Shown piece after piece: positions 27,551 through 46,097 of a DNA stretch of 64,000 nt. The translations under genes were made by a program, and so were the position numbers. Within the stretch, counting starts at the first letter, position 1. Each line of letters opens with the position of its first letter. The notes under the pieces were generated by a model. The model was given only the letters and a program-made list of their open reading frames with translations, was not told where the DNA came from and ran no database searches. The stretch lies in assembly GCA_949287425.1 (NCBI GenBank), contig CASEGJ010000007.1, positions 17,232 to 81,231 of the forward strand. The letters run 5' to 3'. This stretch comes from an uncultured Bacillales bacterium. Lineage in GTDB: Bacteria; Bacillota_I; Bacilli_A; RFN20; CAG-288.

Positions 27551-27564
27551 AAATCTGTTTGTCT

Positions 27565-28550: not shown

Positions 28551-28829
28551 ATCTACGACATTTTTTAAAATGAAAAGGAATAAACATTTTAAATTTTTAC
28601 TAATTTTAATGTGAAAATGAACAATTCATCTTTAAAGAATATTTAATTACATTAATTCAATAACAGGACAATTTTTCGCTAAAATGATATATAAGTTAAA
28701 AATCATTTTTATTTTGTAAATTATGTTGAATATTCATTAATAAGGAAATGCGACGACAACAATTCTAGTAAAAATCGGAGTTGAATTCCAAATAATACTA
28801 AAATTTAATAAAGCTATGAGGTAGATACG

Positions 28830-29235
28830 ATGATAAAAAGAACAATATTTAAAGAAATAGAAAAATCAGTTAAAAGTAGACCTATTACATTAATTACAGG
28901 AGCAAGGCAGATAGGAAAGTCAACAATTGCTTCACTTTTTATAAAAAAAAGGATTTTCATATATCTCTTTGGATAATAGCAGAAATAGAGAACTTGCACA
29001 AAGAGATCCTTATTTATTTTTGGAATTAAATAAGTGGCCTTTGATTATTGACGAGGTTCAAAAAGCTCCCGAACTTTTTGTGCAATCGAAGCAAAGGTGA
29101 ATGAAAAAAACTAAAAAATATAAATAATTATGGAATGTATATTTTAACTAGCTCGCAAATGTTTAGACTCATGAAAAATGTTTCGGAATCAATGGCTGGA
29201 AGAGTTTCTATAATTCATATGTTGCCGTTATTGAA
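28830..29235 (+). pseudogene. Decayed N-terminal fragment of a DUF4143/AAA_14-type ATPase
   Basis: MIKRTIFKEIEKSVKSRPITLITGARQIGKST (Walker A) is frameshifted at the A8 run about 28943-28950. It continues as GFSYISLDNSRNRELAQRDPYLFLELNKWPLIIDEVQKAPELF, with more shifts before GMYILTSSQMFRLMKNVSESMAGRVSIIHMLPL. It lies downstream of the C-terminal fragment, so the order is scrambled. Confidence 0.7.
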
Positions 29236-29430
29236 TATTCATTTTATGATAAGTAATTTTATTACTTATAGATTATCGCATTTTATTAATAGCATGACAC
29301 ATTATGTACAGAAATTTTCTAAAATTTTTGTAGTTAATTAAAAAAGTAACTTCAAAAAATAAGGTTAACACGTCTTTTAATTAATCCTAAATATCTAGTG
29401 TTAAATCCTAGAGACAGATATAATGCCAAA

Positions 29431-29549
29431 AATACAATTGACTGAAAATGTAAAAACTTGTAAAAATGGTCAATACGATTGCTTTTATAAATATAATTTG
29501 AGATAATACAATTGACCAAGAATGTAAAAACTTGTAAAAATGGTCAATA
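29431..29549. repeat. Two tandem 45-bp dyad-ended elements immediately upstream of the intact DUF4143 ATPase gene
   Basis: Copy 1 is 29431-29475 (AATACAATTGACTGAAAATGTAAAAACTTGTAAAAATGGTCAATA). Copy 2 is 29505-29549 and differs at 3 nt. The ends are inverted (ATTGAC...GTCAAT). Copy 2 ends 8 nt before ATG 29558. Confidence 0.8.
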
Positions 29550-29557
29550 GATGAACT

Positions 29558-30811
29558 ATGGAAATTAAAAGAAATTTATATTTAAACAAGATTATTCGAA
29601 AAATTAATAATTCAATGATAAAGGTTATCACCGGAATTAGAAGATGTGGTAAATCTTATCTATTAAATAAGCTTTTTTATAATTACTTGATTCAAAACGG
29701 AATTAGTAAGGATCATATTATTTCAATAGCATTAGATAACTTACAAAGTCTTGAATTACATGATCCATATAAACTTGATAAATACATTAGAGAAAAAATT
29801 ATTGATGATGATATGTATTTCATCTTTTTAGATGAGATTCAAGAAGTGGACAAATTTGTTTATTTATTAAATGGTCTTATGCAAATTCAAAATGCTGATA
29901 TTTACATAACAGGTTCTAATTCAAAGTTCTTATCAAAAGATGTTATTACAGAATTTAGAGGAAGAGGTGACCAAATTCATGTCAATCCGCTTTCATTTAA
30001 AGAATTTTATGAAACATATGGCAAAGATTTTGATGATTCTTTAAACGAATATATGATTTATGGCGGAATGCCTATGATTTTAAATTTTGATAACGATGAA
30101 GAGAAGAATGAATACCTTATAAATCTTTACAAGGAAATATATTTAAAAGATATTAAAGAAAGATATGGAATTAGAAATGATGCAGAACTAGGAGAACTTT
30201 TAAATATTATTTCTTCTTCTATTGGATCACTTACTAATGCTACAAAACTTTCTAACACTTTTAAAAGTGTTAAAAATGTTGATATATCTAAAAATACAAT
30301 TGCCTCATACTTAGAAATTTTTGAGGAATCATTTTTGGTTCAATCATCTAATAGATACGACATAAAAGGAAAAAAATACATTGATAGTCCTAGAAAATAC
30401 TATTTCACTGACTTAGGTTTAAGAAATGCTAGACTTAATTTTAGGCAAATTGAAGAAAATCATTTGATGGAAAATTTAATCTATAATGAATTGAAAATTA
30501 GAGGTTTTTCTGTAGATGTTGGAGTTGTTTCTATTAATGAGAAAAATATTAATGGAAATTATGTTAGGAAACAAAATGAAGTTGATTTTGTTGTTAATAG
30601 TGGAAGCAATAGATATTATATTCAATCAGCATACTCACTTCCGACTTTAGAGAAAGAAAATCAAGAAATAAAATCTTTAATTAATATTCCTGATTCATTT
30701 AAAAAAATTGTTATTGTTAGAGATAATATTAAACTTAAAAGGGATGATAATGGAATTGTTACCATGAGTTTAAAGGAATTTCTTCTTGATGAGGATACAT
30801 TGAATAGTTAG
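29558..30811 (+). CDS. DUF4143-type AAA ATPase (intact copy)
   Basis: 417 aa. P-loop ITGIRRCGKSYLL, Walker B IFLDEIQ, C-terminal DUF4143-like region. Paralog of 7327..8620. Confidence 0.75.
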   Translation: MEIKRNLYLNKIIRKINNSMIKVITGIRRCGKSYLLNKLFYNYLIQNGISKDHIISIALDNLQSLELHDPYKLDKYIREKIIDDDMYFIFLDEIQEVDKFVYLLNGLMQIQNADIYITGSNSKFLSKDVITEFRGRGDQIHVNPLSFKEFYETYGKDFDDSLNEYMIYGGMPMILNFDNDEEKNEYLINLYKEIYLKDIKERYGIRNDAELGELLNIISSSIGSLTNATKLSNTFKSVKNVDISKNTIASYLEIFEESFLVQSSNRYDIKGKKYIDSPRKYYFTDLGLRNARLNFRQIEENHLMENLIYNELKIRGFSVDVGVVSINEKNINGNYVRKQNEVDFVVNSGSNRYYIQSAYSLPTLEKENQEIKSLINIPDSFKKIVIVRDNIKLKRDDNGIVTMSLKEFLLDEDTLNS

Positions 30812-30879
30812 TATTAAAAATTGATGGAATAAGTATTCCACGAAACAAAGAATTTAAGAAAATTTTGTCTGATTTAAGT

Positions 30880-31166
30880 ACGTCGAACAAACTAGTTATG
30901 GAGTACCTGAAGTTTTAAAACACTATGATAAGAATGTGTTTGATATTGAAGAAAACTATATAAATGTTTCTGCACCATATGGTGCAGAAAAAATTATTTC
31001 AGTTATAAAATCTAATTCAAATGTATTGTAAGATGCTTTAGAAAAATTGTGTAATAAATCACGTGTCACAATTTCTAGAATCATTAAGAAATTGAAAAAA
31101 ATCATAAAAGTTGTCCCAGATAAAGGTGGCCATTGGGAAATCATAGAAGAAAAGAAAAAAGATTAG
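30880..31166 (+). pseudogene. C-terminal remnant of an HATPase_c_4/wHTH-tail regulator (RecG-like 'putative DNA-binding' family)
   Basis: GVPEVLKHYDKNVFDIEENYINVSAPYGAEKIISVIKSNSNVL-TAA-DALEKLCNKSRVTISRIIKKLKKIIKVVPDKGGHWEIIEE resembles the tail of that family as recalled from memory. In-frame TAA at 31029-31031. No N-terminal part is present. Confidence 0.35.
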
Positions 31167-31384
31167 AACTATTAAACTTAGTAAGAAAAGATTTGATATT
31201 ATCAATATTTAATATTGTTGATTTTTAATATGATTATGCTACTTTTTTAAATAAACAAAATGCAACATTTTTGAAACGTTATGTTGCACTTACTATTAAA
31301 GTTAGCAAAACAAAACTGTTTTTAGTGTATTAACTATATTTTTAACATTTAATGTGATACAATCCAACTATTGGAAATGTCAAA

Positions 31385-34087
31385 ATGAATGAACATAAAG
31401 TATTGATTTATCATTATTCTTCAAAAAACAGAAAATGGTATGATGCAACTAACAGCGTTCTTTGGTATGGTGATAATAAAAAAGCGTGGAGAGTCCTATT
31501 TGTTAATTCAAAACGATATTTTTATGTTTCATTTTCAAATATGAAAATTTATGATAGTCCAAAAAGAGTGGATTTTCTAGAATTATATTATAAGAATTCA
31601 CGTTGTTTTAACGTTAAAGAACTTCTTTGTTTTAATGGACAAATCTATAAAATTTTTTATGAAAACGGCCATACTTGTATAGCTCTTCCTTCTGAAATAA
31701 AAATAGTAAAGGATGTCCTTAAAAATAATAAGCAAGCAAGTGAAATTATGGCTTATTATCATAAAGTTGTTCAAGAAACTATCCATACTAAAGAAGATCA
31801 ATTTTTGCTTCAACAATTTGATAATATCGATATTGTTAGTGAAGAAAGTGTTCTATCTTTATATTTAAATGGTCAATTAGAAAAAAGCAATTTGAAGTTG
31901 GCACATCCTATTATTTCACCTTTTGGTATAAATTTAAGCCAGTTAAAGGCAATAGAAATGGCTTTTAATAATAGAATATCAATTATTGAAGGTCCACCAG
32001 GAACTGGAAAAACACAAACTATTTTAAATTTAATTGCAAATGCTCTTATAAATAAGATGTCTATAGCGGTAGTATCAAATAATAATTCTGCAACAGATAA
32101 TGTATATGAGAAATTAGATAAATACGGTTATTCATTTATTGCTGCAACTTTAGGAAATAATATTAATATCGATAAGTTTTTTGAAGAATATGATATAGAA
32201 ATTCCTGCTTTTGAAAAAGTTAAAGTCGATATTGCTTCTTTAAAGGAGCTTTATAGTGATTTACCTTATTGTTTTGCCAATGAAAATAATAAGAAGATAG
32301 CAAGCGAAAAATTATCTGCAATAGAATTAGAATACAAGCATTTCTTATTAGATAATAAAGAAATAGATTTTTCTAAATTAAAATTTAAACCTGAAAAAGT
32401 AAAATCTGAAGATGTTATTAATGCACTTGTCTTTTTAAAAGAAAGCGATAAAAAGATTTCATTTTTTACTAAGCTAAAATTAAGATTTAAACTCAAGCTT
32501 AATAAATCGTTTTTTTCGAATAGTTTAGATAAATGTATAGTTTATTTTAATAATCTTTATTATCTAGCAAAAATTAATGAGATTAAAAAAGAAATCAATC
32601 AATTTGATAAAAGAATGAGCAATCAAACTTTAGAACAAAAAATAGACATGTTTACTAAATTGTCAAAGCAATATTTTGAAAATCAACTTTCTACTATATT
32701 TACTAATAATACTAGAAGTGGATATAGAAAAAATAATTATAAAAGAGAATTTATAGAGTTTGTGAAAGATTATCCTGTTATTTTAAGCTCGACTTATTCA
32801 TTAGCTAAATGTACTCAAAGAGGCTTTTTGTTTGATTATTTAATTGTTGATGAATCATCGCAAGTTAATATGGCTAGTGCAATTTTATCAATGAGAGTAG
32901 CAAAAAATATTGTAGTAGTTGGTGATATTAAGCAATTACCTCAAATTGATGATGATTTATTTAAAGAGAGAAATGAACAATTGTTAGCTAAATTTAATAT
33001 TCCTAGAACATATAGCTATTATGGAAATAGTATAATGAGTAGTCTTTTATCTTTATATGGAGATAAAACTCCTAAAACTATGCTTAAAGAGCATTATCGG
33101 TGTAATAAAGATATTATTTCGTTTTGCAATAGAAGATTTTATAATAATGAACTAATTATTTATACTAAGGACAAAAAGCAAGATTATTCGATGAAAGTAA
33201 TTAAAACTAATGCTGGTAACTATGCTAGAAAGAATCCAAATGGCAGTGGCTTATACAATCAAAGAGAGATTGATGAAATTAAACAATTGCTTAATAAAGA
33301 GGAATTGATAGATGTAGGGGTTATAGCTCCATATCGTTATCAAACTCAAATTATTATGGAACAAATAGGAGATAAAGTTGAAGCTAGTACAATTCACAAG
33401 TTTCAAGGTAGAGAAAAGAAAACAATAATTTTTTCTTCTGTAATAAATGATCCAAATGATTTTGTGGAAAATGACAATTTAATAAATGTTGCTGTTTCTA
33501 GAGCAATCGATAAGTTTATTTTAGTAACTTCAGATAAAATCGCTAAATCAAATAGCGGTGTACTTTCAGATTTAGTTAATTATATTACATACAATAATAA
33601 CTTTGGCATATTAGAAGAAGGCTCAATAAAATCTATTTATGATTTACTTTATGAAGATTACCAAAAAGAATTGGAAAAGTTTAGAAATGAACATCCTTCA
33701 AAAGACTTTGATAGCGAAAATATCACAAAAGAATTACTTAAAAATATTTTATCTGAATCTAAGTATTTAAGTCTGGATTTAAGAATGCATGTATCTTTAA
33801 AAGATTTTATTTCACTTAAAGGATTGTCTTTAACTAAGGAAGAATATAAATTTTTTAAAAATCCAAACTCTCATGTTGATTTTTTAATATATAACAAAAT
33901 GAGTAGAAAACCTGTTTTAGCGATTGAAGTTGATGGAATTTACTTTCATGAACAACAAAAAACTCAACAAGAAAGAGATATAAAAAAGAATTCAATATTA
34001 GAAAAAGCTGGTGTTAAGCTTCTTAGATTAAAAACTAATGAAAGTAGAGAAGAAGAAAGAATTAGATCTATTCTCGATTCAATTTAA
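31385..34087 (+). CDS. SF1B (Upf1/DNA2-like) helicase fused to C-terminal DUF559/Vsr-like endonuclease domain
   Basis: 900 aa. Helicase motifs: GPPGTGKTQT, LIVDESSQV, VVVGDIKQLPQI, YRCNKDII, IHKFQGREKKTIIFSSV, NVAVSRAIDKFILV. The C-terminal 71 aa (nt 33872-34084), HVDFLIY..PVLAIEVDGIYFHE...RDIKKNSILEKAGVKLLRL, match the DUF559/DUF2726 pattern. The N-terminal ~170 aa are unassigned. Confidence 0.8.
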   Translation: MNEHKVLIYHYSSKNRKWYDATNSVLWYGDNKKAWRVLFVNSKRYFYVSFSNMKIYDSPKRVDFLELYYKNSRCFNVKELLCFNGQIYKIFYENGHTCIALPSEIKIVKDVLKNNKQASEIMAYYHKVVQETIHTKEDQFLLQQFDNIDIVSEESVLSLYLNGQLEKSNLKLAHPIISPFGINLSQLKAIEMAFNNRISIIEGPPGTGKTQTILNLIANALINKMSIAVVSNNNSATDNVYEKLDKYGYSFIAATLGNNINIDKFFEEYDIEIPAFEKVKVDIASLKELYSDLPYCFANENNKKIASEKLSAIELEYKHFLLDNKEIDFSKLKFKPEKVKSEDVINALVFLKESDKKISFFTKLKLRFKLKLNKSFFSNSLDKCIVYFNNLYYLAKINEIKKEINQFDKRMSNQTLEQKIDMFTKLSKQYFENQLSTIFTNNTRSGYRKNNYKREFIEFVKDYPVILSSTYSLAKCTQRGFLFDYLIVDESSQVNMASAILSMRVAKNIVVVGDIKQLPQIDDDLFKERNEQLLAKFNIPRTYSYYGNSIMSSLLSLYGDKTPKTMLKEHYRCNKDIISFCNRRFYNNELIIYTKDKKQDYSMKVIKTNAGNYARKNPNGSGLYNQREIDEIKQLLNKEELIDVGVIAPYRYQTQIIMEQIGDKVEASTIHKFQGREKKTIIFSSVINDPNDFVENDNLINVAVSRAIDKFILVTSDKIAKSNSGVLSDLVNYITYNNNFGILEEGSIKSIYDLLYEDYQKELEKFRNEHPSKDFDSENITKELLKNILSESKYLSLDLRMHVSLKDFISLKGLSLTKEEYKFFKNPNSHVDFLIYNKMSRKPVLAIEVDGIYFHEQQKTQQERDIKKNSILEKAGVKLLRLKTNESREEERIRSILDSI

Positions 34088-34225
34088 TAAATATTATAAA
34101 TAGATTAATTATTTAAATATGAATATTTAAATCTTATATGTTTATACTTAAATAAAATAATTTGTTAGATCAAATAAGATTATAAATATACATTCTTGTT
34201 AGAATAATTAACTATCTTATTTTAT

Positions 34226-36211
34226 TTATAAAGTCATAGTTAAAAAGATTAAAAGATATGAAATTACATTGCTTGTTAAATAAGAAATACTTGAAAAGGT
34301 ATCAATAATAAAACTTCTTTCACTAAGTCTTTTCTTATAAAAGAATAAGATAGGAATTAAACATGGAATATAAATAAAATTTTCTAATCCTAAGATTTTT
34401 AACATTTCTAAATTGTTTAAATATGAAAGAGAAACAGCAAATAATATTAGAATAAAAACAATAAAAACTGTATTCATTATAAATTGATATCTATTGCCTT
34501 TTTGATATCTTAAAAAATTAGTTTCATCATAGATATTAATAAAATACGTATCTATTATTCTTTTTATAAATATAAAACCTAGAGCTAGGAAAGTATAGGA
34601 AAAATCAACTGAGGCTAAAAAAGAATTTAAATATTTGTTTGTTTCTAATATTCCTGAACTTGTTAATTGAGGATAAATTAATGAAAAGAGTAAAAACATC
34701 AATAGAGGAATAGAAATTAATCTAAAACAAATCCTTTTTGTTTTATTGCAATTTAAATTATCTAATTTATGAAATAAAAAGTAATAGATTAATGCATATA
34801 GTCCCATTGCAAAGAATAGGTTTTTAGGAAGAAAGGAGATAAGAATATTTATAAAAAAGTCACCTGAACGAGATAGATCATAAATTAAAAGACATTCTAA
34901 GCCAGTAAAGATAAGTCCTATAAATAAGTAATTCAAGGCAGTTTTTAACGGCTTATTATTAATTATTTTGCGGTTTAAGTTAATAAAAAGGATCAAGATA
35001 TTAGCTGGAGGCATACAATTTCTTAAAATATCTATGATGTTATCAATGTATTTAATTGTATGAATGTTGTTAACTTGGAAGGCGTTTGCAAATATCAAAT
35101 ACAAATTAAAAGAAGTTAGGAAATAGAAAAGCTGAGTGAAAATTATTAATCCGTTTTCTTTAATAAATGGTTCAATACTGATATCTTTTTTTAAGGCTTT
35201 ATATTCTTTAAGATTTTTACTATCAATTTCAGTGATTTCTATATCTTTTTTATTGTTTTTGTGTTTTATGATGAAATAACTAGAAAATACACTTAGTGAA
35301 ATAATTAAACCAAGACCGATAGCAAAAGAGTAGTAATAAAATTCCGATTCATGGGAATAACATTTATATTGTCCACTTTTTAAATAATCTAGATAATTAT
35401 CAAGAGTTATCGAATAATTAGCTATTAAGTTTAGATTGACAGTTTCATAAATGTCTGGAAATAATTCTTCGATTTTTAGAATAATTTCCACACTTTCAAA
35501 CATGTTTTCATCATCAGTTATTTCAGAATCATAAACTAGATCTTCATCAAGATAATTAAGGTAATAAAAATAGGTGAAAGTTGCCTGTGATTCTATATTT
35601 TCAACTTTGACTAATAATCTTCTTTCAAAAGAATCTGAATAAAATGAATATGTATAATCATATGTATCTAAATTAAATTTATAATCGATTCTACTTTGCG
35701 AAATATAATTGATATTTTCGTTAAATACGTAATCTATTTGTGTGTTATCATCAATACTAGTTGTAAAGATATAATTAGAATCGACTTTTATAGATTTGTC
35801 GATTGAATCTTTTCTAATTTCAAATAATTTATCATCGTAAAATGAAGTAGTATCATAAGAATAAGGAATACATTCTTTTACTGAAAGGGAAAATGAAATT
35901 AGTAAAATAACACTTAAAATAAACGAAATTATTAAAGTAAACTTTGAAGAAAATATCTTTATTAATTTAGTTGAAGACTTTTCTTCTTTATTAAAAAGAT
36001 AAGGATAATGTAAATCACTTTCTTCATTATATTCATCTAAAGAAATCGATAGAGCATTGATTAATTTTTCCTTTTCTTTTTTTCGAGGATAACTATTTCC
36101 ATTTTCAATATCTTTTAAACGATAAATAGGGATTTTAGTTAATTTCTTTAAATCTTCAAAAGAATAATTTAAAGCTTCTCTTTTTTCTTTTTGAACTTTG
36201 TTCCACTCCAT
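34226..36211 (-). CDS. Membrane-anchored XRE-family HTH protein with large polytopic C-terminal domain
   Basis: ATG 36211. N-terminus LNYSFEDLKKLTKIPIYRLKDIENGNSYP is HTH_3-like. A TM helix, a ~220-aa extracytoplasmic segment and about 10 TM helices follow. The ORF-track TTG start at 36232 is less likely. Confidence 0.6.
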   Translation of the reverse strand: MEWNKVQKEKREALNYSFEDLKKLTKIPIYRLKDIENGNSYPRKKEKEKLINALSISLDEYNEESDLHYPYLFNKEEKSSTKLIKIFSSKFTLIISFILSVILLISFSLSVKECIPYSYDTTSFYDDKLFEIRKDSIDKSIKVDSNYIFTTSIDDNTQIDYVFNENINYISQSRIDYKFNLDTYDYTYSFYSDSFERRLLVKVENIESQATFTYFYYLNYLDEDLVYDSEITDDENMFESVEIILKIEELFPDIYETVNLNLIANYSITLDNYLDYLKSGQYKCYSHESEFYYYSFAIGLGLIISLSVFSSYFIIKHKNNKKDIEITEIDSKNLKEYKALKKDISIEPFIKENGLIIFTQLFYFLTSFNLYLIFANAFQVNNIHTIKYIDNIIDILRNCMPPANILILFINLNRKIINNKPLKTALNYLFIGLIFTGLECLLIYDLSRSGDFFINILISFLPKNLFFAMGLYALIYYFLFHKLDNLNCNKTKRICFRLISIPLLMFLLFSLIYPQLTSSGILETNKYLNSFLASVDFSYTFLALGFIFIKRIIDTYFINIYDETNFLRYQKGNRYQFIMNTVFIVFILILFAVSLSYLNNLEMLKILGLENFIYIPCLIPILFFYKKRLSERSFIIDTFSSISYLTSNVISYLLIFLTMTL

Positions 36212-36353
36212 AGAAATATTATAAAAAATCAAATCTTTTTAATCTATTGTTTTCTTATAGATATAGTCATTAAAGCTTGATTTTTATTGAAAAAGAAATT
36301 TTTAAAATATAAAATATAGGTGCTAGTTAATAATACCTTGCCTCTCTCAGTGC

Positions 36354-36383
36354 TTAAAACTGTCCTGGGGGGGGGGGTAATAT
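36354..36383 (+). promoter_or_regulatory. Putative promoter whose spacer contains a G11 tract
   Basis: TTAAAA (36354-36359), 18-nt spacer (c tgtcct G11), TAATAT (36378-36383). Confidence 0.4.
36367..36377 (+). repeat. Homopolymeric G11 tract
   Basis: Counted directly: 4 G at 36367-36370 plus 7 G at 36371-36377. Confidence 0.95.
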
Positions 36384-36443
36384 TAGAATAATGTTATATC
36401 CTCAGATGGATCTAGGTGAAAGAAACTAGGTCTGTTTTTTATT

Positions 36444-36452
36444 GGGGGGGGG
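36444..36452 (+). repeat. Homopolymeric G9 tract at the RBS / N-terminal extension of the DUF2971 gene
   Basis: Counted directly. It ends 8 nt before ATG 36461. It is also read as W-G-G-D in the GTG-36416 frame. Confidence 0.95.
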
Positions 36453-36460
36453 ATATAAAG

Positions 36461-37252
36461 ATGTTAATTTATCATTTCACTACGATGAAAAATTTGGAGT
36501 GTATTTTAAATTCTAAATTATTAAAATTTTCAAAACTTGAACATTCAAATGATCCGCTTGAGCATTTATATTCAAAACAATTAATTGATAAATTTGTAAA
36601 GCAATTATATCCAGATAATTATCAGGATATACTATCTCATTTTCATATGAATGTTTCTAATAATAATGATTTGTATTTAAATGGAATTTGTTTTTCAAAA
36701 AAATTGAATGATGTACATAATTGGATGGAATATGGCGATCATGGCTATGGTGTTGCTTTAGGATTTGATTATGATAAATTGAAAGAAATTTTTGAAGAAA
36801 ATAATCTTAGTGGATATATTGATTTAAATAATGTTATTTATTCTAGAGCAAGTGTTTTAAGAAAAATTAGTAAAATTGCTAGTTTGTCAACTAATCCTAT
36901 TGAAGCTGGCCGTAAATTAGGAAGATTATATCAGCGCATAAAGCAACCTTCATATTTTGTTGAATATGAATGTCGTATAGTACATTTACCTTCTGAATAT
37001 ACTGATGAATTTAATAAATCAAATATTTTTAGTGGATTATTATTTTTTTATGATGAAACTCTTAATAGTTATGTTTTAAATCTTGAAATGTTATATGAAA
37101 AAGACGTATTTAAAAAAATAGTTTTTGGATGTAATGTAAAACAATATATTCCTAAAATTGTCAAACAACAATTTTCAAAGAATTTTATGAATATAAAATA
37201 TGAATATTCTAATGTTATTGTGAAGAAAAAGGAGGAAAAACATAATGATTAA
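36461..37252 (+). CDS. DUF2971 family protein
   Basis: MLIYHFTTMKNLECILNSKLLKFSKLEHSNDPLE, CFSKKLNDVHNWMEYGDHGYGVALGFD and YFVEYECRIV match the DUF2971 pattern. A possible GTG start at 36416 is in frame through the G9 tract. Confidence 0.7.
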   Translation: MLIYHFTTMKNLECILNSKLLKFSKLEHSNDPLEHLYSKQLIDKFVKQLYPDNYQDILSHFHMNVSNNNDLYLNGICFSKKLNDVHNWMEYGDHGYGVALGFDYDKLKEIFEENNLSGYIDLNNVIYSRASVLRKISKIASLSTNPIEAGRKLGRLYQRIKQPSYFVEYECRIVHLPSEYTDEFNKSNIFSGLLFFYDETLNSYVLNLEMLYEKDVFKKIVFGCNVKQYIPKIVKQQFSKNFMNIKYEYSNVIVKKKEEKHND

Positions 37253-40200
37253 AAGAAATTTGAAATTGGCCACACTATTTCTATTAATTTTTTCCTTTGC
37301 TTTAGCAAGTTGTAGTAATGATGGAAAAGGTGTTTCATCAAGTAGCACTAATAAATGGAGTGATATTTTATCAAATATTAGTGATAGTGATGATAATAGC
37401 ACTTCTACTCATGAACATACCTTTAGTAGTTCATATGAATATGATGATACTTATCACTGGCATCCTTCTACATGTGGACATGATGTACAAGGTGATAAAG
37501 AAAAGCATAAATTTACAACATCAATAACTAATCCAACATATGAAAAAGGTGGATATACTACTTATACTTGTTTAGTATGTGGTTATTCATATATTGATAA
37601 TAAAACTGATGCTTTGCCTATTACTATCACATGGAAAAATTACGATGGAACGATATTAGAAGTTGATAAAAATGTTACTTATGGCAGTATACCTAGTTAT
37701 GATGGGTCAACTCCAATAAGAGAAAGCGATGGAGTTAATAATTATTATTTTATAGGTTGGACTCCTGAAGTTAAAAAAGCAACTGAAAGTACAACATATA
37801 CCGCAACATTCACTGATGAAGAAATTACTTATACTATTGATTTTGATTTAAATGGTGGTACTTCAAATTCATATAAAGGTCCAATTGAAGTAAAGACATT
37901 TAGTAAAGATATGTTTTTCTTTGATTGTGTTAAAGAAGATTGGTCTTTTAGAGGTTGGGAATATAAAGGAGAAAAAATCTTTGATGAAAATGGCAATCAA
38001 CTAAAAAATATTACTTTAGTTGATAATATGGTTTTTAAAGCTATTTATTCTCAAACTGTTAAATTATCAATTGTTAGTAATATTCCTGGAGCGGGGACTA
38101 TTACTGGTGATGGTGAATATCCATATAATACTTATGTCGATGTATCAGTTAAGCCTAATCAAGGTTATGTATTTATTGGTTGGTACTACCAAGATACTTT
38201 ACTGTCAAATACTGAAGATTATAAATATATGATGTGGGATCAAGATATTACATTGGAAGCGAGATTCCAATTAGATTCATTTACCATGCATGTTTATAGT
38301 AATAGTGAAGACCTTGGTTTAGTTTTATTAAGATCTAATATAAATAATAATTATTTAACTGAATATAGTGAACAGAGAAAATATACATCTGAGGTCACCA
38401 TTGCCGCTTATTCTAAAACTGATGTTAGATTCTTAGGCTGGTATGATGAAAATAATGAGTTAGTTACTACAAATGCTGTATATACCTTTGTTATGCCTAA
38501 CCATGATTATACGTTAGAAGCTAAATGGAATTATTTTAAAATTAACTACAATTTAAATGGTGGTACTAATAGTGAAAATAATCCAGAATATTTTGATATA
38601 GATGATAATGAGATTATTCTTTCTAATCCAACAAGAGATGATAAAGACTTTGTAGGATGGAAATATAATGGTGAACTTATTGATAAAATTGATTCATCTA
38701 TTATTAATAATGGCAAAGATATAACTTTAGAAGCTGTTTGGAGCAATTATACATATAGTATCCTTGAAGATGATAATGGTGATAAATACATTAGTATTAC
38801 TGGATGGGAAAATCCTAGTGAAGAATTAGTTATTCTAGAAACACTGAATATAAATGGTGAAAATATTCCAATAAAAGAAATTGGCGCAAATGCATTTAAG
38901 GATAATAAAAAATTAAAATCTGTTACTATTCCAAATAATATTACTAGAATTGGAAGCTCAGCTTTCTCTGGATGTATCAATTTAGAAACGATAAATATTA
39001 GTGAAAATAGCCATCTCGAAATAATAGGCGATTCAGCGTTTTACAATTGTGAATTACTAAATTTTATTAATATTCCGAATTGTGTTCAAACAATTAGCGA
39101 CTCTGCTTTCTCTGGCTGCTCCTCTTTAACTTCTATTATCATTAATAATAGCGTTACCACAATAGGAAACTATGCTTTCAGTGAGTGTTCTAACTTAACC
39201 ATTTATTGTAAATTCGCATCTAAACCTAGTACTTGGAAGTCTAATTGGAATTATTCAAATTGTCCAGTTATATGGTCGTGTGAAGGGGGAGGCATATATA
39301 GTGGATTAAGATATACCATTTATGAGGAAAATAATAAGTTGTTTATTACAATTACAGATTATTTAGGAACTGATCAAAATGTAATTATTCCTAGTACAAT
39401 TAGCATCGGTAATGAAGATATACCAGTTACTTCTATTGATGAAAAAGCTTTTTATAATTGCAATTCGCTTGTTTCAATAACTATACCAGATAGTGTTACC
39501 ATGATTGGTGATAGTGCTTTTTATGGCTGTTCCTCACTAACTTCAATAACAATCTCTGATAGTGTAACAACAATTGGCTCGCAAGCTTTTAATGGTTGTT
39601 CTTCTATTACTATTTACTGTGAAGCTGCATCCAAACCTAGTGGTTGGAGTTCAAGTTGGAATTCTTCATATAGACCAGTTGTATGGAATTCTCTAGGTGG
39701 TGGAATCTATAACGAATTTAAATATGTCATTCTAATAGATGATAATGATGAACCATATATTGAAATTACAGATTATTTGGGTTCAGATAATGAAAATGTA
39801 ATTATTCCTAATGTAATTAATATTGGTAATAAAAATATATCGGTTACTTCAATTGGTCGTGAAGCTTTCAGTAATTCATCCCTATCCTCAATTATCATTC
39901 CAAATAATATAACAGCAATAGGATACTATGCTTTCTCAAACTGTACTAATTTAGAATCTATAACATTCGAAGAGAATAGTCAGTTAACAGCAATAGGTGA
40001 GTATGTTTTCTCTGGCTGTACTTCATTAATATCTATCATTATTCCAGATAGTATTACTTCAATTGAAAGTGATGCTTTTTCAGGTTGTACTAATCTAGAA
40101 TCTATAATATTTGGAGAGAATAGTCAGTTACAAATAATAGGTGATTACGCTTTTTCTAACTGTTCATCCTTAACTTCAATTACTATTCCAGATAGTGTTA

Positions 40201-42341
40201 CTTCAATTGGAAGTGATGCTTTCCGTGGATGTTCATCTTTAACCTCAATTATCATTCCCAATAGTATTATTTCAATCGGAAGTTCTGCTTTTGCTAATTG
40301 TTCCTCTATTACTATTTATTGTGAAGCCGCATCCAAACCTAGTGGTTGGAATTCAAGTTGGAATTCTTCAAATAGACCAGTTGTATGGAATTGTTTAGAT
40401 GCTAGAATAACAGATGATGGATTTGTTTATCATGTTTATATAAACGAAGAAGGTGATAAATACATTATAATTGATACATTTATTGGAGTATCATCCGAAA
40501 TTAATATTCCAGACGTAATTAATGTTGACGGGGAAAACATAAAAGTTACTATTATTGCTGACTATGCGTTTGCTAATAATAATAGAATTAAATCAATATC
40601 AATAGGAAACAATGTTACAACAATTGGAAGCTCTGCTTTTCGAAATTGTTTTTACTTAACTTCAATATTTATCTCAAATAGCGTTACTTCAATAGGAAAT
40701 TATGCTTTTTATGATTGTGCTAATTTAAAATCTATAACATTTGGAGAGAATAGTCAGCTAAAAACAATAGGTGAGTATGCTTTCAGTAGTTGGTCATCGT
40801 CTTTAACTTCAATCACTATTCCAAATAGTGTTATTTCAATAGGAAATTATGCTTTCTATAGATGTACTAATCTAGAATCTATAACATTTGGAGAGAATAG
40901 TCAGTTACAAACAGTAGGCGAGCATGCTTTCTACGGCTGTTCATCCTTAACCTCAATTACTATTCCAGATAGTGTTACTTCAATTGGGAGTGATGCTTTC
41001 CGTGGATGTGCAAATCTAAAATCTATAACATTTGGAGAGAATAGTCAGCTAAAAACAATAGGTGAGTATGCTTTCTATGGCTGTTCATCTTTAACCTCAA
41101 TTATTATTCCAAGCAGTGTTACTTCAATTGGAAGTTATGCTTTTGCTGATTGTTCCTCTATTACTATTTATTGTGAAGCCTCTTCTAAACCTAGCGGTTG
41201 GGATTTTAACACCTCAAGGCCCGTCGTATGGGTTGGAGATGATATAGTAATTAAAGGTGATTTTGCTTATGTAATACGTATAGATGGTATTGAACAATAT
41301 ATAGAAATTGTTCGATATTTAGGGAATAGCAATTATGTGACTATTTCAAAAACTATTGAGATTTGTGGACAAGAAATACCAATTAAGGTAATTGGTTCAT
41401 ATGCTTTCAATGGGTGTGCAAATCTAAAATCTATAACATTTGAAGAAAATAGTCAGTTACAAATAATAGGTGAGTATGCTTTCTATGAATGTTCTAAACT
41501 AGAATCTATAATATTTGGAGAGAATAGTCAGCTACAAAAAATCGGAAGTTATGCTTTCCGTGGATGTTCATCTTTAACTTCAATTATTATTCCAAATAGC
41601 GTTACTTCAATTGGAAGTTATGCTTTCAATGGATGTGTAAATCTAAAATCTATAACATTTGGAGAGAATAGTCAGCTAAAAACAATAGGTGAGTATGCTT
41701 TCTATGAATGTTCTAAACTAGAATCTATAATATTTGGAGAGAATAGTCAGCTACAAAAAATCGAAAGTTATGCTTTCTGGTATTGTTCATCTTTAACCTC
41801 AATTATTATTCCAAGCAGTGTTACTTCAATTGGAAGTGATGCTTTCCGTGGATGTTCTAAATTAGAATCTATAACATTTGAAGAGAATAGTCAGTTACAA
41901 ACAATAGGAAGTTATGCTTTCTGGTATTGTTCATCCTTAACCTCAATTACTATTCCAGATAGTGTTACTTCAATTGGGAGTGATGCTTTCAGTGGATGTG
42001 CAAATCTAAAATCTATAACATTTGAAGAAAATAGTCAGTTACAAACAATAGGTGAGTATGCTTTCTATGAATGTTCTAAACTAGAATCTATAATATTTGG
42101 AGAGAATAGTCAGCTAAAAACAATAGGTGAGTATGCTTTCTATGGCTGTTCATCCTTAATCTCAATTATTATTCCGAATACTGTAACCACAATAGAGAAA
42201 TATGCCTTTTATAATTGTTCTGATTTAACAGTTTATTGTGAAGCCTCTTCTAAACCTAGCGGTTGGAGTTCTTATTGGAATATAACTGCTAATGGTACAT
42301 ATCCTTCAAAATGCCGAGTAGTATGGGGATACAAAGGATAA
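37245..42341 (+). CDS. Giant surface lipoprotein: Listeria-Bacteroides repeats plus BspA-type leucine-rich repeats
   Basis: 1698 aa. AGGAGG SD. Signal peptide with lipobox LASC. The N-terminal third has repeated Y.I.FDLNGG...F.GW motifs. The rest is about 23-aa LRR_5-type units (IP.SVTSIG.YAF.GCSSLTSI), grouped in modules each capped by IYCEA(A/S)SKPSGW. Overlaps the DUF2971 stop by 8 nt. Confidence 0.85.
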   Translation: MIKRNLKLATLFLLIFSFALASCSNDGKGVSSSSTNKWSDILSNISDSDDNSTSTHEHTFSSSYEYDDTYHWHPSTCGHDVQGDKEKHKFTTSITNPTYEKGGYTTYTCLVCGYSYIDNKTDALPITITWKNYDGTILEVDKNVTYGSIPSYDGSTPIRESDGVNNYYFIGWTPEVKKATESTTYTATFTDEEITYTIDFDLNGGTSNSYKGPIEVKTFSKDMFFFDCVKEDWSFRGWEYKGEKIFDENGNQLKNITLVDNMVFKAIYSQTVKLSIVSNIPGAGTITGDGEYPYNTYVDVSVKPNQGYVFIGWYYQDTLLSNTEDYKYMMWDQDITLEARFQLDSFTMHVYSNSEDLGLVLLRSNINNNYLTEYSEQRKYTSEVTIAAYSKTDVRFLGWYDENNELVTTNAVYTFVMPNHDYTLEAKWNYFKINYNLNGGTNSENNPEYFDIDDNEIILSNPTRDDKDFVGWKYNGELIDKIDSSIINNGKDITLEAVWSNYTYSILEDDNGDKYISITGWENPSEELVILETLNINGENIPIKEIGANAFKDNKKLKSVTIPNNITRIGSSAFSGCINLETINISENSHLEIIGDSAFYNCELLNFINIPNCVQTISDSAFSGCSSLTSIIINNSVTTIGNYAFSECSNLTIYCKFASKPSTWKSNWNYSNCPVIWSCEGGGIYSGLRYTIYEENNKLFITITDYLGTDQNVIIPSTISIGNEDIPVTSIDEKAFYNCNSLVSITIPDSVTMIGDSAFYGCSSLTSITISDSVTTIGSQAFNGCSSITIYCEAASKPSGWSSSWNSSYRPVVWNSLGGGIYNEFKYVILIDDNDEPYIEITDYLGSDNENVIIPNVINIGNKNISVTSIGREAFSNSSLSSIIIPNNITAIGYYAFSNCTNLESITFEENSQLTAIGEYVFSGCTSLISIIIPDSITSIESDAFSGCTNLESIIFGENSQLQIIGDYAFSNCSSLTSITIPDSVTSIGSDAFRGCSSLTSIIIPNSIISIGSSAFANCSSITIYCEAASKPSGWNSSWNSSNRPVVWNCLDARITDDGFVYHVYINEEGDKYIIIDTFIGVSSEINIPDVINVDGENIKVTIIADYAFANNNRIKSISIGNNVTTIGSSAFRNCFYLTSIFISNSVTSIGNYAFYDCANLKSITFGENSQLKTIGEYAFSSWSSSLTSITIPNSVISIGNYAFYRCTNLESITFGENSQLQTVGEHAFYGCSSLTSITIPDSVTSIGSDAFRGCANLKSITFGENSQLKTIGEYAFYGCSSLTSIIIPSSVTSIGSYAFADCSSITIYCEASSKPSGWDFNTSRPVVWVGDDIVIKGDFAYVIRIDGIEQYIEIVRYLGNSNYVTISKTIEICGQEIPIKVIGSYAFNGCANLKSITFEENSQLQIIGEYAFYECSKLESIIFGENSQLQKIGSYAFRGCSSLTSIIIPNSVTSIGSYAFNGCVNLKSITFGENSQLKTIGEYAFYECSKLESIIFGENSQLQKIESYAFWYCSSLTSIIIPSSVTSIGSDAFRGCSKLESITFEENSQLQTIGSYAFWYCSSLTSITIPDSVTSIGSDAFSGCANLKSITFEENSQLQTIGEYAFYECSKLESIIFGENSQLKTIGEYAFYGCSSLISIIIPNTVTTIEKYAFYNCSDLTVYCEASSKPSGWSSYWNITANGTYPSKCRVVWGYKG
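41416..42115 (+). repeat. Near-identical intragenic direct repeats within the LRR gene
   Basis: The 118-bp segments 41416-41533 and 41998-42115 differ at 1 nt by eye. A 54-bp block (TCTATAACATTTGGAGAGAATAGTCAGCTAAAAACAATAGGTGAGTATGCTTTC) recurs at 40731, 41022, 41649 and, with 1 mismatch, 42087. Confidence 0.85.
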
Positions 42342-42429
42342 ATAGATAAACAATATGCTTGAAAGGATAAATTCTTAGTATGTATTTAATTTTAGCTAAA
42401 AAGGAGATTTTATTGCTCCTATTTACGTT

Positions 42430-43119
42430 TTGGTATCATATTATCTTAAAGAATATGGTAATGATGATTTTATATTAGCTTATCCGGGATATTCTTCAAG
42501 GCATTCTTATAAAAATGATAATTGTTTTGCTGGTCAAAAATTTATATGTGATAAATTATATGATATTAAAGGTAATAATAATACAGGCCTATTTGCTCAT
42601 TTTATGAATCCTCAAGAAGCAAAGTATATGTCATTTTATCTTAATAAAAGATATCCTAATAGATATATGTTTTTGGATGCTTTATCTAGTAACAAGCAAG
42701 ATCATTCTAAAATGATTATTTTCTTTAGAAAAGAAGCTTATAATTTATTTTTAAACTTCTATGGAAACAGTAAAATATCATCTTTAAATATTCCAAGTCA
42801 GCTAATTAAAGCTTGTGTTATTGGTTCATCTAATCAAAGTGACAATACATATTTACATCATCTTTATAATAAAAAAGCTGATAAAGGTGAGGCAGATTTA
42901 TTTATAGTTAATAATGACTTTTTTGGCTTAGATAGCGAAAATAAAATTAAGATATTTATTAATGATTCAATAATAAACTTTATTGAAACTGGAGAGAGGC
43001 GTAATGATGATTATTTATATAGAATTCATCGGAAATTTACTGCCTCTAAATCTTTTGATATAGGTAATGGTAATAACACTTTATCTGATTTATTTAGAAA
43101 TTTTATAGTTGAAAAATAA
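42430..43119 (+). CDS. Hypothetical protein, tentatively single-HKD PLD-superfamily nuclease-like
   Basis: 229 aa. DHSKMIIFF (HxK, nt 42703-42711) and ACVIGSSNQS (GSxN) lie 37 aa apart, longer than the canonical spacing, and the motif Asp is not evident. The start is uncertain: TTG 42430 or ATT 42412 after AAGGAG. Confidence 0.3.
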   Translation: MVSYYLKEYGNDDFILAYPGYSSRHSYKNDNCFAGQKFICDKLYDIKGNNNTGLFAHFMNPQEAKYMSFYLNKRYPNRYMFLDALSSNKQDHSKMIIFFRKEAYNLFLNFYGNSKISSLNIPSQLIKACVIGSSNQSDNTYLHHLYNKKADKGEADLFIVNNDFFGLDSENKIKIFINDSIINFIETGERRNDDYLYRIHRKFTASKSFDIGNGNNTLSDLFRNFIVEK

Positions 43120-43171
43120 GATTAGTTGTCTAGTTGAATTTATTGATTGAAAGTTAATAAGGTATATTTAT

Positions 43172-44185
43172 ATGAATCAAATAGAAATGTTTTGGCAAAC
43201 ATATTTACAAATTGAAAAAGAAATGTTAGATATAGCAAAATATATTTATATTACTGATGAAAATGGCGATAAACAATTAAATGTATATTCTCCACATATC
43301 GCTAATTTATTAGTAAGAGTTTGTGTAGAAATAGAAGCAATATCAAAAGTGTTATATTATCGCTTAGGTGGTTCTAAACAACGTGGTGATAAATCGTTAA
43401 TGTTTGATACTGATTGTTTAAAATTAGTAGATATAAATTATGCTATTTCTAAAAAAGAAGTCATTATAACTTGTCCATTATTTAACATTACTAAGGATGC
43501 TAATAAAATATTTAATACACTTAAACATGCGCATAAACGGCAAGGTACAAGTTGGGAACGTGCCTATCAGGCAGTAAAACACGATAGATATTCTTCATTG
43601 AGTAAAGGAACAGTTTGTAATTTAATACATGCTATTGGTGCATTATATTTATTAAATATTTACTATAAAAACATTAAATATTGTATTAAGTATCAGGATT
43701 TTTTAACATTTGATTTTTCTTTAGGTTCATCTATTTTTTCAGTAAATAAGCCTGAAGAAAAATATGTGATAGATGTTATTAATAATTGTCAATGCCAAGC
43801 AAAATTACAATCTAATAGTAGCCCATATATTTTAAAGTATACTGATGCATCATATAAAAGAATTTTAGAAATTAACAATAAATTAGAAGAAGACATAAAT
43901 AATTTTATTAAACAGCAACCTGAATTTAATAAAGAAGAATTTTTTGATCAAATAAAAGTACAACAAGATAAAGGTCGTGTAGTACTATTTCCTGAATTAT
44001 GTAAATATCGAATTAATAAAAAGATTCCTGTCAATTTATCTTTTGAAGAAAGAAAAAAGCTTTTAATTGAAAGTGAAGAATGGAATAGTAATTTAATAAA
44101 AACAAGTATTTCTAAAAAAATGATGAAATCACAGTGGAAAACATTCAAAAAGAGATTGATAATACTGGAATATTATATGGATTAA
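43172..44185 (+). CDS. Hypothetical helical protein (possible HEPN-like Rx6H), C-terminus apparently frameshifted
   Basis: 337 aa. N-terminal helical domain with YSPHIANLLVRVCVEIEAISKVLY and WERAYQAVKHDRYSSL...NLIHAIGALYLLNIYY. After the A7 run 44114-44120, a second frame reads on plausibly to TAA 44284-44286. Confidence 0.35.
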   Translation: MNQIEMFWQTYLQIEKEMLDIAKYIYITDENGDKQLNVYSPHIANLLVRVCVEIEAISKVLYYRLGGSKQRGDKSLMFDTDCLKLVDINYAISKKEVIITCPLFNITKDANKIFNTLKHAHKRQGTSWERAYQAVKHDRYSSLSKGTVCNLIHAIGALYLLNIYYKNIKYCIKYQDFLTFDFSLGSSIFSVNKPEEKYVIDVINNCQCQAKLQSNSSPYILKYTDASYKRILEINNKLEEDINNFIKQQPEFNKEEFFDQIKVQQDKGRVVLFPELCKYRINKKIPVNLSFEERKKLLIESEEWNSNLIKTSISKKMMKSQWKTFKKRLIILEYYMD

Positions 44186-44523
44186 AATTACAAGAAAGTT
44201 TTGAAAAAGATAGAATTTCTCAAGCTACTAACAATGAAATATGTGAGTTAATTCTAGACGATGGTAATATTAAATATAGCATATAAATTGGTAAGTATAA
44301 AATTCAAAATAAATTCAGTAATAGGCTTAAAATGCACAAATATGTAGATTTGGAATTTTTATCTAAAACAATTTATTTTTAATTATTAATACGTTTTGTT
44401 TATGTATAAGTTTATAAGTATTTTTATATATGAAATTATATATAATTTTAGCAACAAAAATATTATTTCATGTGTAGGTAATAATTGTTTACCATTTGTA
44501 TTGCTTTTAAAGATAAAATAAAT

Positions 44524-44804: not shown

Positions 44805-46097
44805 ATGAAGTATCGTAGAAAATTTACTCAAGTTCTAGCTTTAGTTAGTATATTTTCTATAAGTTGTTCACCTATTAATGCTAAGGGAAATTTATTAAAA
44901 GAAGCTAAGAAAGTTGATTCAGTATTTAGTATAGGAAATGATAGTAATTTAAAGTCTCTTTTAAATAGCGCTCAAAAATTTTCTTCTAAATTAGTTAGTA
45001 GAGGAATTAACTATTTTAAATCAAATGACAATTATATTATTTCACCTATATCAGCATATCTTTTGTTAACTATGGCTTCTGAAATGACAAAAGGTAATAC
45101 TCAAGAAGAACTTTTAAAAGCTACTAACACTAATTTAGAAATTTTAAGAAGCAGTTATTCTTCCTTGTTTAGACTTTTAGAAAGAAGTTTTAAAGGAGGG
45201 GAATTTAATATTGATAATTCTATCTGGCTTAATAGCGATAGAGAATATAATCAAGATTGTTTAGATATATTAGCTAACGATTATTATTGTTCCTCTTATG
45301 AAGTTGATTTTTCAAATAACAATCAATATGCTAACCAAGCTATCACTAATCATATTGATGAAAATACCAATGGACTTTTAAAACCTAATTTTAATTTAGC
45401 TCAAGATACTCTTTTTGCTTTAGCTAATATTATTTATCTAAAAGATATTTGGAATGAATATATAGATGAACTATCTTTTCACGATGAAAAAATAGAATTT
45501 ACTAATTCCAACAATTCTAAAGTTGATAAAGATTTTTTAAATGGTTTATATGTTGTAGGTAAAACATATAAAGGTGAAGATTTTACTACGTTTTATTCTT
45601 CAACATATAATGGATATAAGTTACATTTTGTTTTACCTAAAGCTGGATATAGTATAGAAGAAGTTTTTATAGAAGATAATATCAATCAAATTATGAATAT
45701 AACTTCTTATGGCGGAATAGATGATGTAAATAAAATAAGGACATTTACCCGCTGTGTTTTTCCTGAGTTTGAAGTTAGTGGCTCTCACGATTTAGTTGAT
45801 TTTATGGTTAATGAATTTAATATTAATGATTTATTTAATCAAAATTGCGATTTAACTGGATTAATTAATAATGGTGCTAGTGTAGGCTTATTAAAACAGG
45901 AAGTTAAATTAAGTGTCAATAAAAAGGGAATTGAAGGAGCAGCTGTAACTGTAATGGCAGGGGATGAATCAACTAGTGATCCATATTCTGATTATCAATC
46001 TATTTATGAAGAATATATTGTAGATAAGTCTTTTGGTTTTATTCTAACTGATGAAAATAACATCAATTTATTTTCAGGAATAATTTATAACATTTAA
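44805..46097 (+). CDS. Serpin-family protease inhibitor with signal peptide (possible lipoprotein)
   Basis: 430 aa. AAGGAG SD. Hinge/RCL NKKGIEGAAVTVMAGDESTS. C-terminal serpin signature IVDKSFGFILTDENNINLFSGIIYN. N-terminal hydrophobic leader ending FSISC. Confidence 0.8.
   Translation: MKYRRKFTQVLALVSIFSISCSPINAKGNLLKEAKKVDSVFSIGNDSNLKSLLNSAQKFSSKLVSRGINYFKSNDNYIISPISAYLLLTMASEMTKGNTQEELLKATNTNLEILRSSYSSLFRLLERSFKGGEFNIDNSIWLNSDREYNQDCLDILANDYYCSSYEVDFSNNNQYANQAITNHIDENTNGLLKPNFNLAQDTLFALANIIYLKDIWNEYIDELSFHDEKIEFTNSNNSKVDKDFLNGLYVVGKTYKGEDFTTFYSSTYNGYKLHFVLPKAGYSIEEVFIEDNINQIMNITSYGGIDDVNKIRTFTRCVFPEFEVSGSHDLVDFMVNEFNINDLFNQNCDLTGLINNGASVGLLKQEVKLSVNKKGIEGAAVTVMAGDESTSDPYSDYQSIYEEYIVDKSFGFILTDENNINLFSGIIYNI

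Follow-up and report, generated by a model that had tools for sequence, protein, structure and literature searches.

Two runs of guanines, G11 (tract 1) and G9 (tract 2), stand upstream of an operon for a DUF2971 protein and a leucine-rich repeat (LRR) surface lipoprotein in DNA from an uncultured Bacillales bacterium (assembly GCA_949287425.1, contig CASEGJ010000007.1, positions 17,232 to 81,231; this whole stretch of 64,000 nucleotides (nt), numbered from its first letter, is referred to as the window). Our results provide good evidence that both tracts are hypermutable, in that they are polymorphic among near-identical strains to a degree above the background of other changes. Comparison with related loci further indicates that the tracts probably belong to a conserved, structured 5' leader of the operon's transcript. 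We lean toward the reading, based on modeling, that the tracts are hypermutable repeats in a leader with two mutually exclusive folds, and that their length would shift folding and translation and give a graded output.

Hypermutable G tracts upstream of a lipoprotein operon

Slippage-driven phase variation is textbook knowledge for Neisseria, Haemophilus, Campylobacter, Helicobacter and Mycoplasma, and the original prediction for this region proposed the same process for G11 and G9, which it took to be the only long G/C homopolymers of an AT-rich stretch. A census of runs bears out that premise. At 27.4% GC the window holds no run of G or C longer than 5 except these two, the next longest being 5, and both the positions of the tracts and the 66 nt between them are as had been given. 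From base composition, 0.003-0.007 G/C runs of at least 9 and 6e-5 to 2e-4 runs of at least 11 are expected per window. Since these expected counts are far below one, the tracts are not due to chance. Moreover, in 188 kb of related loci all G/C runs of at least 7 lie inside the homologous leader. The tracts are real and highly non-random, and each is a repeat long enough to slip and unusual for the genome that carries it.

The same locus was retrieved from other samples by exact-protein look-ups (L007, L023-L032, L033 and L034; such handles denote loci or assemblies throughout), which together with the window gave 14 assemblies. Among these, tract 1 comprised 6, 7, 9, 10 or 11 G and tract 2 comprised 7, 8, 9 or 10 G. 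Written as tract 1/tract 2, the alleles were 11/9 in the window, 10/9 in L025, 10/8 in L028, 9/10 in L023, 9/9 in L027, 9/8 in L026, 9/7 in L031, 7/9 in both L024 and L030, 7/7 in both L007 and L033, and 6/8 in L029; the contigs of L032 and L034 begin within tract 1, which has at least 9 and at least 5 G in them, respectively, and tract 2 has 9 G in each. An alignment of 2.2 kb contained indels in the two tracts and in one 7-nt tandem unit, and no others. When assembly pairs with zero substitutions over 1.7-2.2 kb were compared, 11 of the 12 differed in a tract; the window, L026 and L028, with their three different alleles, are otherwise identical. The invariance of tract length that had been named beforehand as speaking against slippage was not seen.

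Two further loci behave alike. Where the leader precedes a PDDEXK_4-type gene, assemblies encoding a 100% identical protein carry G13 in tract 1 (one metagenome-assembled genome) or G10 (two assemblies), and their second run is constant at G6. In a 90%-identical locus, three assemblies have G9 as tract 1 and another has G10, with a run of G5 that is stable. Across loci, then, long tracts (G9-G13) vary among assemblies and short ones (G5, G6) are stable, which is the pattern that real slippage predicts.

It could be argued that the tracts are stable in vivo and that errors of sequencing or assembly at homopolymers account for the differences in length. Every length was taken from short-read metagenome assemblies, contigs break at tract 1 in L032, L034, L038 and L044, and L033 and L034, which share a nonsense allele and may or may not be one sample, show 7 and 9 G in tract 2, respectively. 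However, we consider this explanation very improbable. The ranges are wide (6-11 and 7-10) and are set between identical flanks, and the division into stable G5 and G6 runs and variable G9-G13 runs is expected of true slippage. In addition, otherwise identical assemblies from ENA and Logan concur in their tract lengths (L024 and L030, both 7/9; L003 and L004, both G9), with the reservation that the data do not state which ENA and Logan assemblies share a sample.

Table 1. Positions in the window of the promoter, the leader with its elements, and the genes of the operon.
Feature	Positions	Strand	Description
Conserved sigma-70-type promoter	36287..36315	+	TTGAAA 36287-36292, 17-nt spacer, TAAAAT 36310-36315; 10/12 consensus
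Tandem TAAAATA, two copies	36303..36316	+	covers part of the promoter spacer and the -10 box
Conserved structured 5' leader	36320..36460	+	about 140 nt; covariance model R1; no Rfam family
Helix P1, 5' strands	36323..36338	+	CTAGTT 36323-36328, TACCT 36334-36338; long-range; proposed antiterminator
CU box	36341..36348	+	CCTCTCTC (CCUCUCU; CCUCUCUC); helix P2 5' strand, pairs with tract 1
Poly-G tract 1 (G11)	36367..36377	+	helix P2 3' strand; hypermutable site
Helix P3	36377..36397	+	GTAATATT 36377-36384 with AATGTTAT 36390-36397 (RNA: GUAAUAUU with AAUGUUAU)
Helix P4	36398..36411	+	ATCC 36398-36401 with GGAT 36408-36411; 4 invariant pairs, variable loop
Terminator-like hairpin	36408..36443	+	GGATCTAG, 10-nt loop, CTAGGTCT, then TGTTTTTTATT; general form GGAUCUAG-N10-CUAGGUCY and U run
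Poly-G tract 2 (G9)	36444..36452	+	Shine-Dalgarno position; hypermutable
DUF2971 gene	36461..37252	+	263 aa, first gene of the operon; Pfam PF11185 match; orthologues share the start codon
BspA-type LRR surface lipoprotein gene	37245..42341	+	1698 aa; LRR_5 E = 1.8e-235, Flg_new

A structured leader behind a conserved promoter

The intergenic region of the operon extends from a minus-strand gene for a helix-turn-helix (HTH) membrane protein (34226-36232) to the ATG of the plus-strand DUF2971 gene at 36461, and the leader within it (Table 1) is shared by at least 18 loci from related metagenome-assembled genomes. Leader loci were gathered by pattern scans of genome and metagenome collections, and model R1 finds the leader once in each of 17 distinct loci, with scores of 56-143 bits; an 18th locus type (L035), which turned up when proteins were looked up later, was recognized by eye and carries no R1 score. 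The source records are labeled as uncultured Bacilli, an Acholeplasmatales bacterium and Ca. Scatoplasma merdavium. In the orthologous locus L001 (85% protein identity) the same ~140 nt stand upstream, with tracts of G8 and G5 and a TTG start codon. The leader precedes lipoprotein or defence-like operons: in one group of loci it is followed directly by a large lipoprotein gene, and in the other by a small cytoplasmic gene (encoding a DUF2971, FRG-domain, PDDEXK_4 nuclease or P-loop protein) and then a large lipoprotein gene. Only one copy was detected in the window, either with R1 or with the invariant leader 22-mer at up to 3 mismatches, and R1 likewise detects one in each related locus. Rfam gave no relevant match, whether the whole window was searched at the gathering threshold or positions 36250-36520 at E values up to 10, and the 22-mer was absent from viral contigs in a scan.

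The promoter upstream of the leader is conserved with it. In 12 of 16 related loci its geometry is kept (at least 9/12 consensus positions, a spacer of 17-18 nt, and a -10 box whose end precedes the first leader position by 4 nt), and in the window it would put G11 about 45 nt inside the transcript. If transcription starts where the conservation of this promoter suggests, both tracts would lie in the 5' leader and not in a promoter spacer.

The original prediction had read G11 differently, as the spacer of a working promoter, TTAAAA-N18-TAATAT, in which slippage would tune the distance between the -35 and -10 boxes, with G9 tuning Shine-Dalgarno (SD) spacing or reading frame; Neisseria porA and Mycoplasma hyorhinis vlp are spacer switches of that kind. 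The hexamers are present where it had placed them (TTAAAA at 36354-36359, TAATAT at 36378-36383, 18 nt apart), TAATAT or TAATGT follows the tract directly in every locus, and in a clade with a 7-nt deletion the upstream promoter falls to 8/12, equal to the internal one (which has a 16-nt spacer at G9). Nevertheless the claim that tract length sets promoter geometry does not hold up well, and we regard this reading as improbable. The internal pair matches the sigma-70 consensus at 8/12 positions in the window and at 5-8/12 in 16 other loci, never above 8/12, which is weak considering that shuffled sequence yields 12.5 ± 3.9 matches of at least 9/12 per 1.6 kb. An 18-nt loop segment specific to this lineage holds its -35 box; other loci have ~9 unrelated nt there, and the equivalent hexamers of 15 related loci match at only 2-4 of 6 positions (CTCTCT, TCTCGA and similar). 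With the observed alleles G6-G11 the spacer would be 13-18 nt long and in most cases non-functional, and the conservation of TAATAT is accounted for by helix P3. With a stronger and conserved promoter upstream, tract 1 does not appear, judged over the family, to lie between a functional -35 and a functional -10 box, as would be required for a switch of the porA, opc or vlp type.

The fold of the leader comprises four helices, P1 to P4, derived with RNAalifold from 13 leaders; pair statistics were taken over 18 sequences aligned to R1. The 5' strands of the long-range helix P1 pair with AACTAG (36424-36429) and AGGTG (36414-36418), both of which lie within the terminator-like hairpin, and compensatory changes are seen in L019 (CUGGAU with AUCUAG, U-A to A-U) and L021 (UGCCU with AGGCG, A-U to G-C). 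In P2 the CU box pairs with tract 1 through C-G, U-G and U-A pairs, across a loop of 9 to 25 nt depending on the locus; pairing is kept in 96.8% of cells, with 2 compensatory pairs. The position of tract 1 is occupied in other loci by G5-G13 or by AGAGGGGG, GGAGGGGG, GAGAGGGG or GGTGGGGG, and a P2 3' strand reading AGAGGGGG, GAGAGGGG, GAGGGGGGGG or GGAGGGGG gives U-A pairs where the homopolymer has U-G. A homopolymer is a natural end-point for a strand that pairs with alternating C and U. P3, which includes TAATAT, has 8 pairs, 3 of them varying on one side only, and a loop of variable length. The G-U pairs on which P2 and P3 rely confine the structure to plus-strand RNA.

Standard pairs make up 97.7% of the 527 pair cells, compared with 43-54% when the partners are slid, and 5 pairs are compensatory, compared with 0.9 ± 0.9 in shuffles (0 of 500 shuffles reach 5). 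We take these figures as moderate support for a conserved structure with covariation, and the base-pairing scheme as partly shown. An extended 5' hairpin of UAAUAAUACC with GGUAAUAUUA, which appears in the single-sequence minimum-energy fold, was rejected as a conserved element; it is broken in L012, L006, L019 and L021, where P1 compensates.

The hairpin at the 3' end of the leader has 8 pairs. All 136 of its pair cells are paired across loci, 3 pairs vary on one side (G-C/G-U, U-G/U-A), and its folding energy is -9.6 kcal/mol in the window and -12.9 kcal/mol in L001. Its loop and 3' half overlap the P1 3' strands, and the SD comes directly after its U run. The layout is that of an intrinsic-terminator-like hairpin overlapped by an alternative helix, at which transcription may terminate. 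A candidate leader peptide spanning the hairpin (ATG GAT CTA GGT GAA AGA AAC TAG) was rejected, its start codon being missing in about half of the loci (TAGGATC variants).

Tract length and operon output

In most loci the aligned counterpart of tract 2 is AGGAGG, GGAGG or AGGAG; in L001, L015 and L035 it is G5, and in L020 it is G6. Judged by this alignment, tract 2 is the SD of the operon, apparently derived by an A-to-G change followed by expansion. The tract ends 8 nt before ATG 36461, which shares its reading frame with a GTG at 36416, as had been noted; the two consequences drawn from this, that a slip would alter SD spacing or the reading frame from the GTG, were not supported. The 3' edge of the homopolymer stays 8 nt from the ATG at any tract length. 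The GTG lies in the loop of the terminator-like hairpin, which is conserved ahead of unrelated genes, and the lengths of tract 2 do not differ by multiples of three. Tract 2 is not read as codons, since strains with an identical protein carry 7, 8, 9 or 10 G. What tract 2 length may change is accessibility. Full-mRNA folding predicts a pairing of GGGGAUAUA with the conserved UAUAUCCUC box at 36395-36403, and in the model a longer tract 2 leaves more G unpaired, the opening energy going from about 12 to about 6 kcal/mol. A conserved anti-SD pairing of UAUAUCCUC with GGAGGAUAUA across the family was rejected, being strong in several loci and weak in L003 and L011; it is kept as a prediction for the window locus only.

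The scheme we lean toward would operate on RNA. The conserved promoter most likely transcribes the leader ahead of the DUF2971 and LRR lipoprotein genes. The leader could then adopt either fold A, the four-helix junction P1-P4, in which P1 would tie up the loop and 3' half of the terminator-like hairpin, or fold B, in which that hairpin would form, followed by its U run; the two would be mutually exclusive. Replication slippage would produce heritable changes in tract length. Surplus G in tract 1 would pair into the UACCU strand of P1 and so favor termination, and the length of tract 2 would determine how many SD-like G are left free of the upstream UAUAUCCUC box. The outcome would be graded, stochastic and heritable variation in operon output at the RNA level, arising neither from promoter geometry nor as an ON/OFF switch.

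To explore the energetic side of this scheme, we changed the length of tract 1 in the window leader and folded the ensemble under constraints, using a thermodynamic model only. The modeled free-energy difference between the antiterminator and terminator folds was 0.2-1.7 kcal/mol for G4-G10, 3.0 kcal/mol for G11, 5.1 kcal/mol for G12 and 7.1 kcal/mol for G13. In the model, the rise from G11 onwards comes from pairing between surplus G and the UACCU strand of P1. Among the natural leaders, the terminator fold is favored in 14 of 16, and the largest modeled bias (9.0 kcal/mol) belongs to L020, which has G13. Tract length may, going by the model, affect expression of the operon.

However, the scheme should be interpreted with some caution, since several observations weigh against it. 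The tract lengths are the consensus of short-read metagenome assemblies, which is error-prone at homopolymers, and four contigs begin in or just after tract 1 (L032, L034, L038 and L044). The modeled energy effect is non-monotonic and small over most of the observed lengths (G6-G10), with only G11 and longer standing out. The P2 loop is very variable, and extra G might simply be tolerated there. Covariation concerns 5 pairs only, in a family whose members are very similar and with an alignment fitted to the model. A simple terminator scan did not report the hairpin, because the loop limit of that scan was 8 nt. Lastly, L023, L027 and L029 have a single TAAAATA copy, which leaves the conserved promoter with a spacer of 10 nt, and their genes are intact; in this clade the operon is either silenced or transcribed from another promoter. 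The TAAAATA indel is tied to the one clade by single-nucleotide polymorphisms at 37706-37880, and is thus slower than the G-tract changes and no fast switch.

A serious rival is that the tracts are hypermutable yet functionally neutral. According to this explanation the purine strand opposite the CU box drifts to poly-G, a single A-to-G change turns GGAGG into G5, and subsequent slippage has little effect on expression. Other loci do show intermediates of the expected kind, with AGAGGGGG or GGAGGGGG in place of tract 1 and G5 in place of the usual SD. P2 accommodates loops of 9-25 nt, the modeled energy difference is nearly flat from G4 to G10, and the distance from the poly-G SD to the ATG is constant at all lengths. 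On the other hand, G/C runs are otherwise absent from the 64 kb of the window and the 188 kb of related loci, and the persistence of long unbroken runs in 14 of 14 assemblies at 27% GC suggests that they are maintained. Furthermore, two tracts have expanded in one leader both here and in L020 (G13 and G6), and the model has the fold shift by 3-7 kcal/mol once a run reaches G11. On balance we find neutrality rather unlikely, with considerably more in its favor than the promoter-spacer reading has.

The tracts could also act through a partner other than the CU box, either a C/U-rich small RNA in trans, for which RepG provides a precedent (PMC8295292), or an RNA or DNA G-quadruplex formed between the tracts, for which G7 or more in both could supply four G3 columns. 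To this we give very little credence. A partner in cis, the CU box, is present and co-varies with tract 1, and a quadruplex is not a feature of the family, most members of which have one G run or an interrupted run. No candidate small RNA was found, although no search for small RNAs was made.

Possible mobility, genomic setting and known systems

A second leader with two runs occurs in L020 (minus strand, 3813-3950), where G13 belongs to P2 and G6 immediately precedes the start codon of a PDDEXK_4 gene that has a large lipoprotein gene behind it. At a PDDEXK_4 locus, two assemblies from different studies (L042 1-141 and L043 1-119) have the 5' half of the leader, i.e. the P1 5' strand, CU box and G tract, swapped for unrelated AT-rich sequence; the junction falls exactly at the expected end of tract 1 (…CAAGG followed by TTAATATT…).

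Upstream of the promoter and leader, seven related loci share a conserved block whose end is the C-terminus of a degenerate large serine recombinase (L001 5000-5870; L017 3160-3600 and L014 2162-2614, both as oriented; L008; L010; L012; L016). L014 retains a recognizable Zn_ribbon_recom fragment and has an IS3-type transposase between the recombinase fragment and the promoter-leader. These remains suggest past movement of promoter and leader together, within a mobile cassette.

The view that the target downstream is a surface lipoprotein operon was supported. The 1698-aa protein has a lipoprotein signal peptide (…FALASC…) with the lipobox L-A-S-C, Listeria-Bacteroides repeats and BspA-type LRRs matching LRR_5. 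The start of its gene overlaps the DUF2971 stop codon and has an AGGAGG of its own upstream. Among assemblies with identical DUF2971 the lipoprotein is called at 1078 to 1698 aa, which reflects either variation in repeat copy number or repeat collapse in short-read assembly. A CAA-to-TAA nonsense change at 36602 truncates DUF2971 in L007, L033 and L034, and the downstream lipoprotein gene is still open.

In 7 of 11 assemblies of the locus, a 1-nt deletion at 35603 (CAAC to CAC) splits the divergent HTH-membrane gene into 205 and 425 aa. We considered this frameshift as another repeat switch and rejected it, as the deletion does not fall in a repeat. If the HTH-membrane protein regulates the operon, the majority of strains would be without it. 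The operon lies within an island (27474-44200) that adjoins a tRNA-Glu gene (27474-27550) and falls to 22-25% GC in places. The island genes have a defence-related look, with an AAA_14/DUF4143 ATPase (PADLOC PDC-S01, E = 5e-118), a superfamily 1 helicase with DUF2726 (Mko- or Hhe-like) and DUF2971, which gives a weak PDC-S31 match. A serpin gene is located downstream at 44805-46097.

Of the known systems, the closest precedent is the H. pylori tlpB-hp0102 operon, in which a 5'-UTR (untranslated region) repeat of 6-16 G pairs with the C/U-rich loop of RepG and repeat length sets expression gradually (PMC8295292). The two have in common a variable G repeat in the 5' UTR (a location that is probable here, given the conserved promoter), an operon for the cell surface, and a C/U-rich pairing partner, which in our locus would engage the repeat through helix P2. 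They differ in that the partner here is in cis, forming one helix of a larger conserved fold that includes a terminator-like hairpin, in that the second tract is the SD, and in lineage, the Acholeplasma-like Bacilli being unrelated to H. pylori.

Other systems share fewer of these properties. The poly-A tract of Mycoplasma hyorhinis vlp is a homopolymer switch in a promoter spacer. The poly-G tract of Neisseria meningitidis porA is another (PMC3639595). Here as there, a slippage-prone homopolymer upstream of a surface-protein gene varies in length from strain to strain; in our locus, however, the -35 box is not conserved and the conserved promoter is upstream of the tract. In Moraxella catarrhalis uspA1, an adhesin gene, a poly-G tract lies downstream of the transcription start and its length changes the expression level, which resembles the present case in that the poly-G is in the transcribed 5' region; to our knowledge no conserved multi-helix leader or terminator has been described for it. 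The Mycoplasma vsp, vpma and vsa systems place a shared conserved promoter and 5' UTR before diverse surface-lipoprotein genes and vary by DNA inversion. They resemble our family in this promoter-5' UTR cassette, in belonging to wall-less or related Bacilli, and in a recombinase gene that is sometimes adjacent. In our family, by contrast, 1-2 copies were seen per genome, inversion sites were not found, only a remnant is left of the adjacent serine recombinase, and variation is in repeat length.

With riboswitch and attenuator leaders the present leader has in common a promoter-proximal conserved fold, a terminator-like hairpin and U run before the SD, and a mutually exclusive long-range helix. 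It differs in the absence of an Rfam family, in genes that encode surface lipoproteins and defence-like proteins instead of metabolic functions, and in having one helix strand that is hypermutable; neither a known ligand or effector nor a curated RNA family could be assigned to it. A literature search returned nothing on the leader, nor on poly-G switching in Acholeplasmatales or uncultured gut Acholeplasma-like Bacilli. We raise tentatively, as less likely than the RNA-level effect of tract length itself, that the leader is a new class of cis-regulatory RNA, riboswitch-like or a factor-dependent attenuator. In uncultured Acholeplasma-like bacteria of the gut and rumen it would form, with its promoter, a cassette controlling operons for surface lipoproteins and defence-like proteins, and one of its helix strands and the SD would have turned hypermutable. 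On this view, chance would enter the heritable set-point of an otherwise deterministic sensing element.

In conclusion, strains that are otherwise identical can already be seen in public metagenome assemblies to segregate for tract alleles, upstream of a BspA-type LRR lipoprotein of 1698 aa that is a plausible host- or phage-facing surface molecule. If tract length tunes the fold, the leader would be a cis version of the RepG/tlpB rheostat, with a hypermutable repeat built into a regulatory RNA helix. The locus brings within reach of direct testing a new RNA motif, together with a mechanism by which the surface of gut commensals could vary in a graded way.

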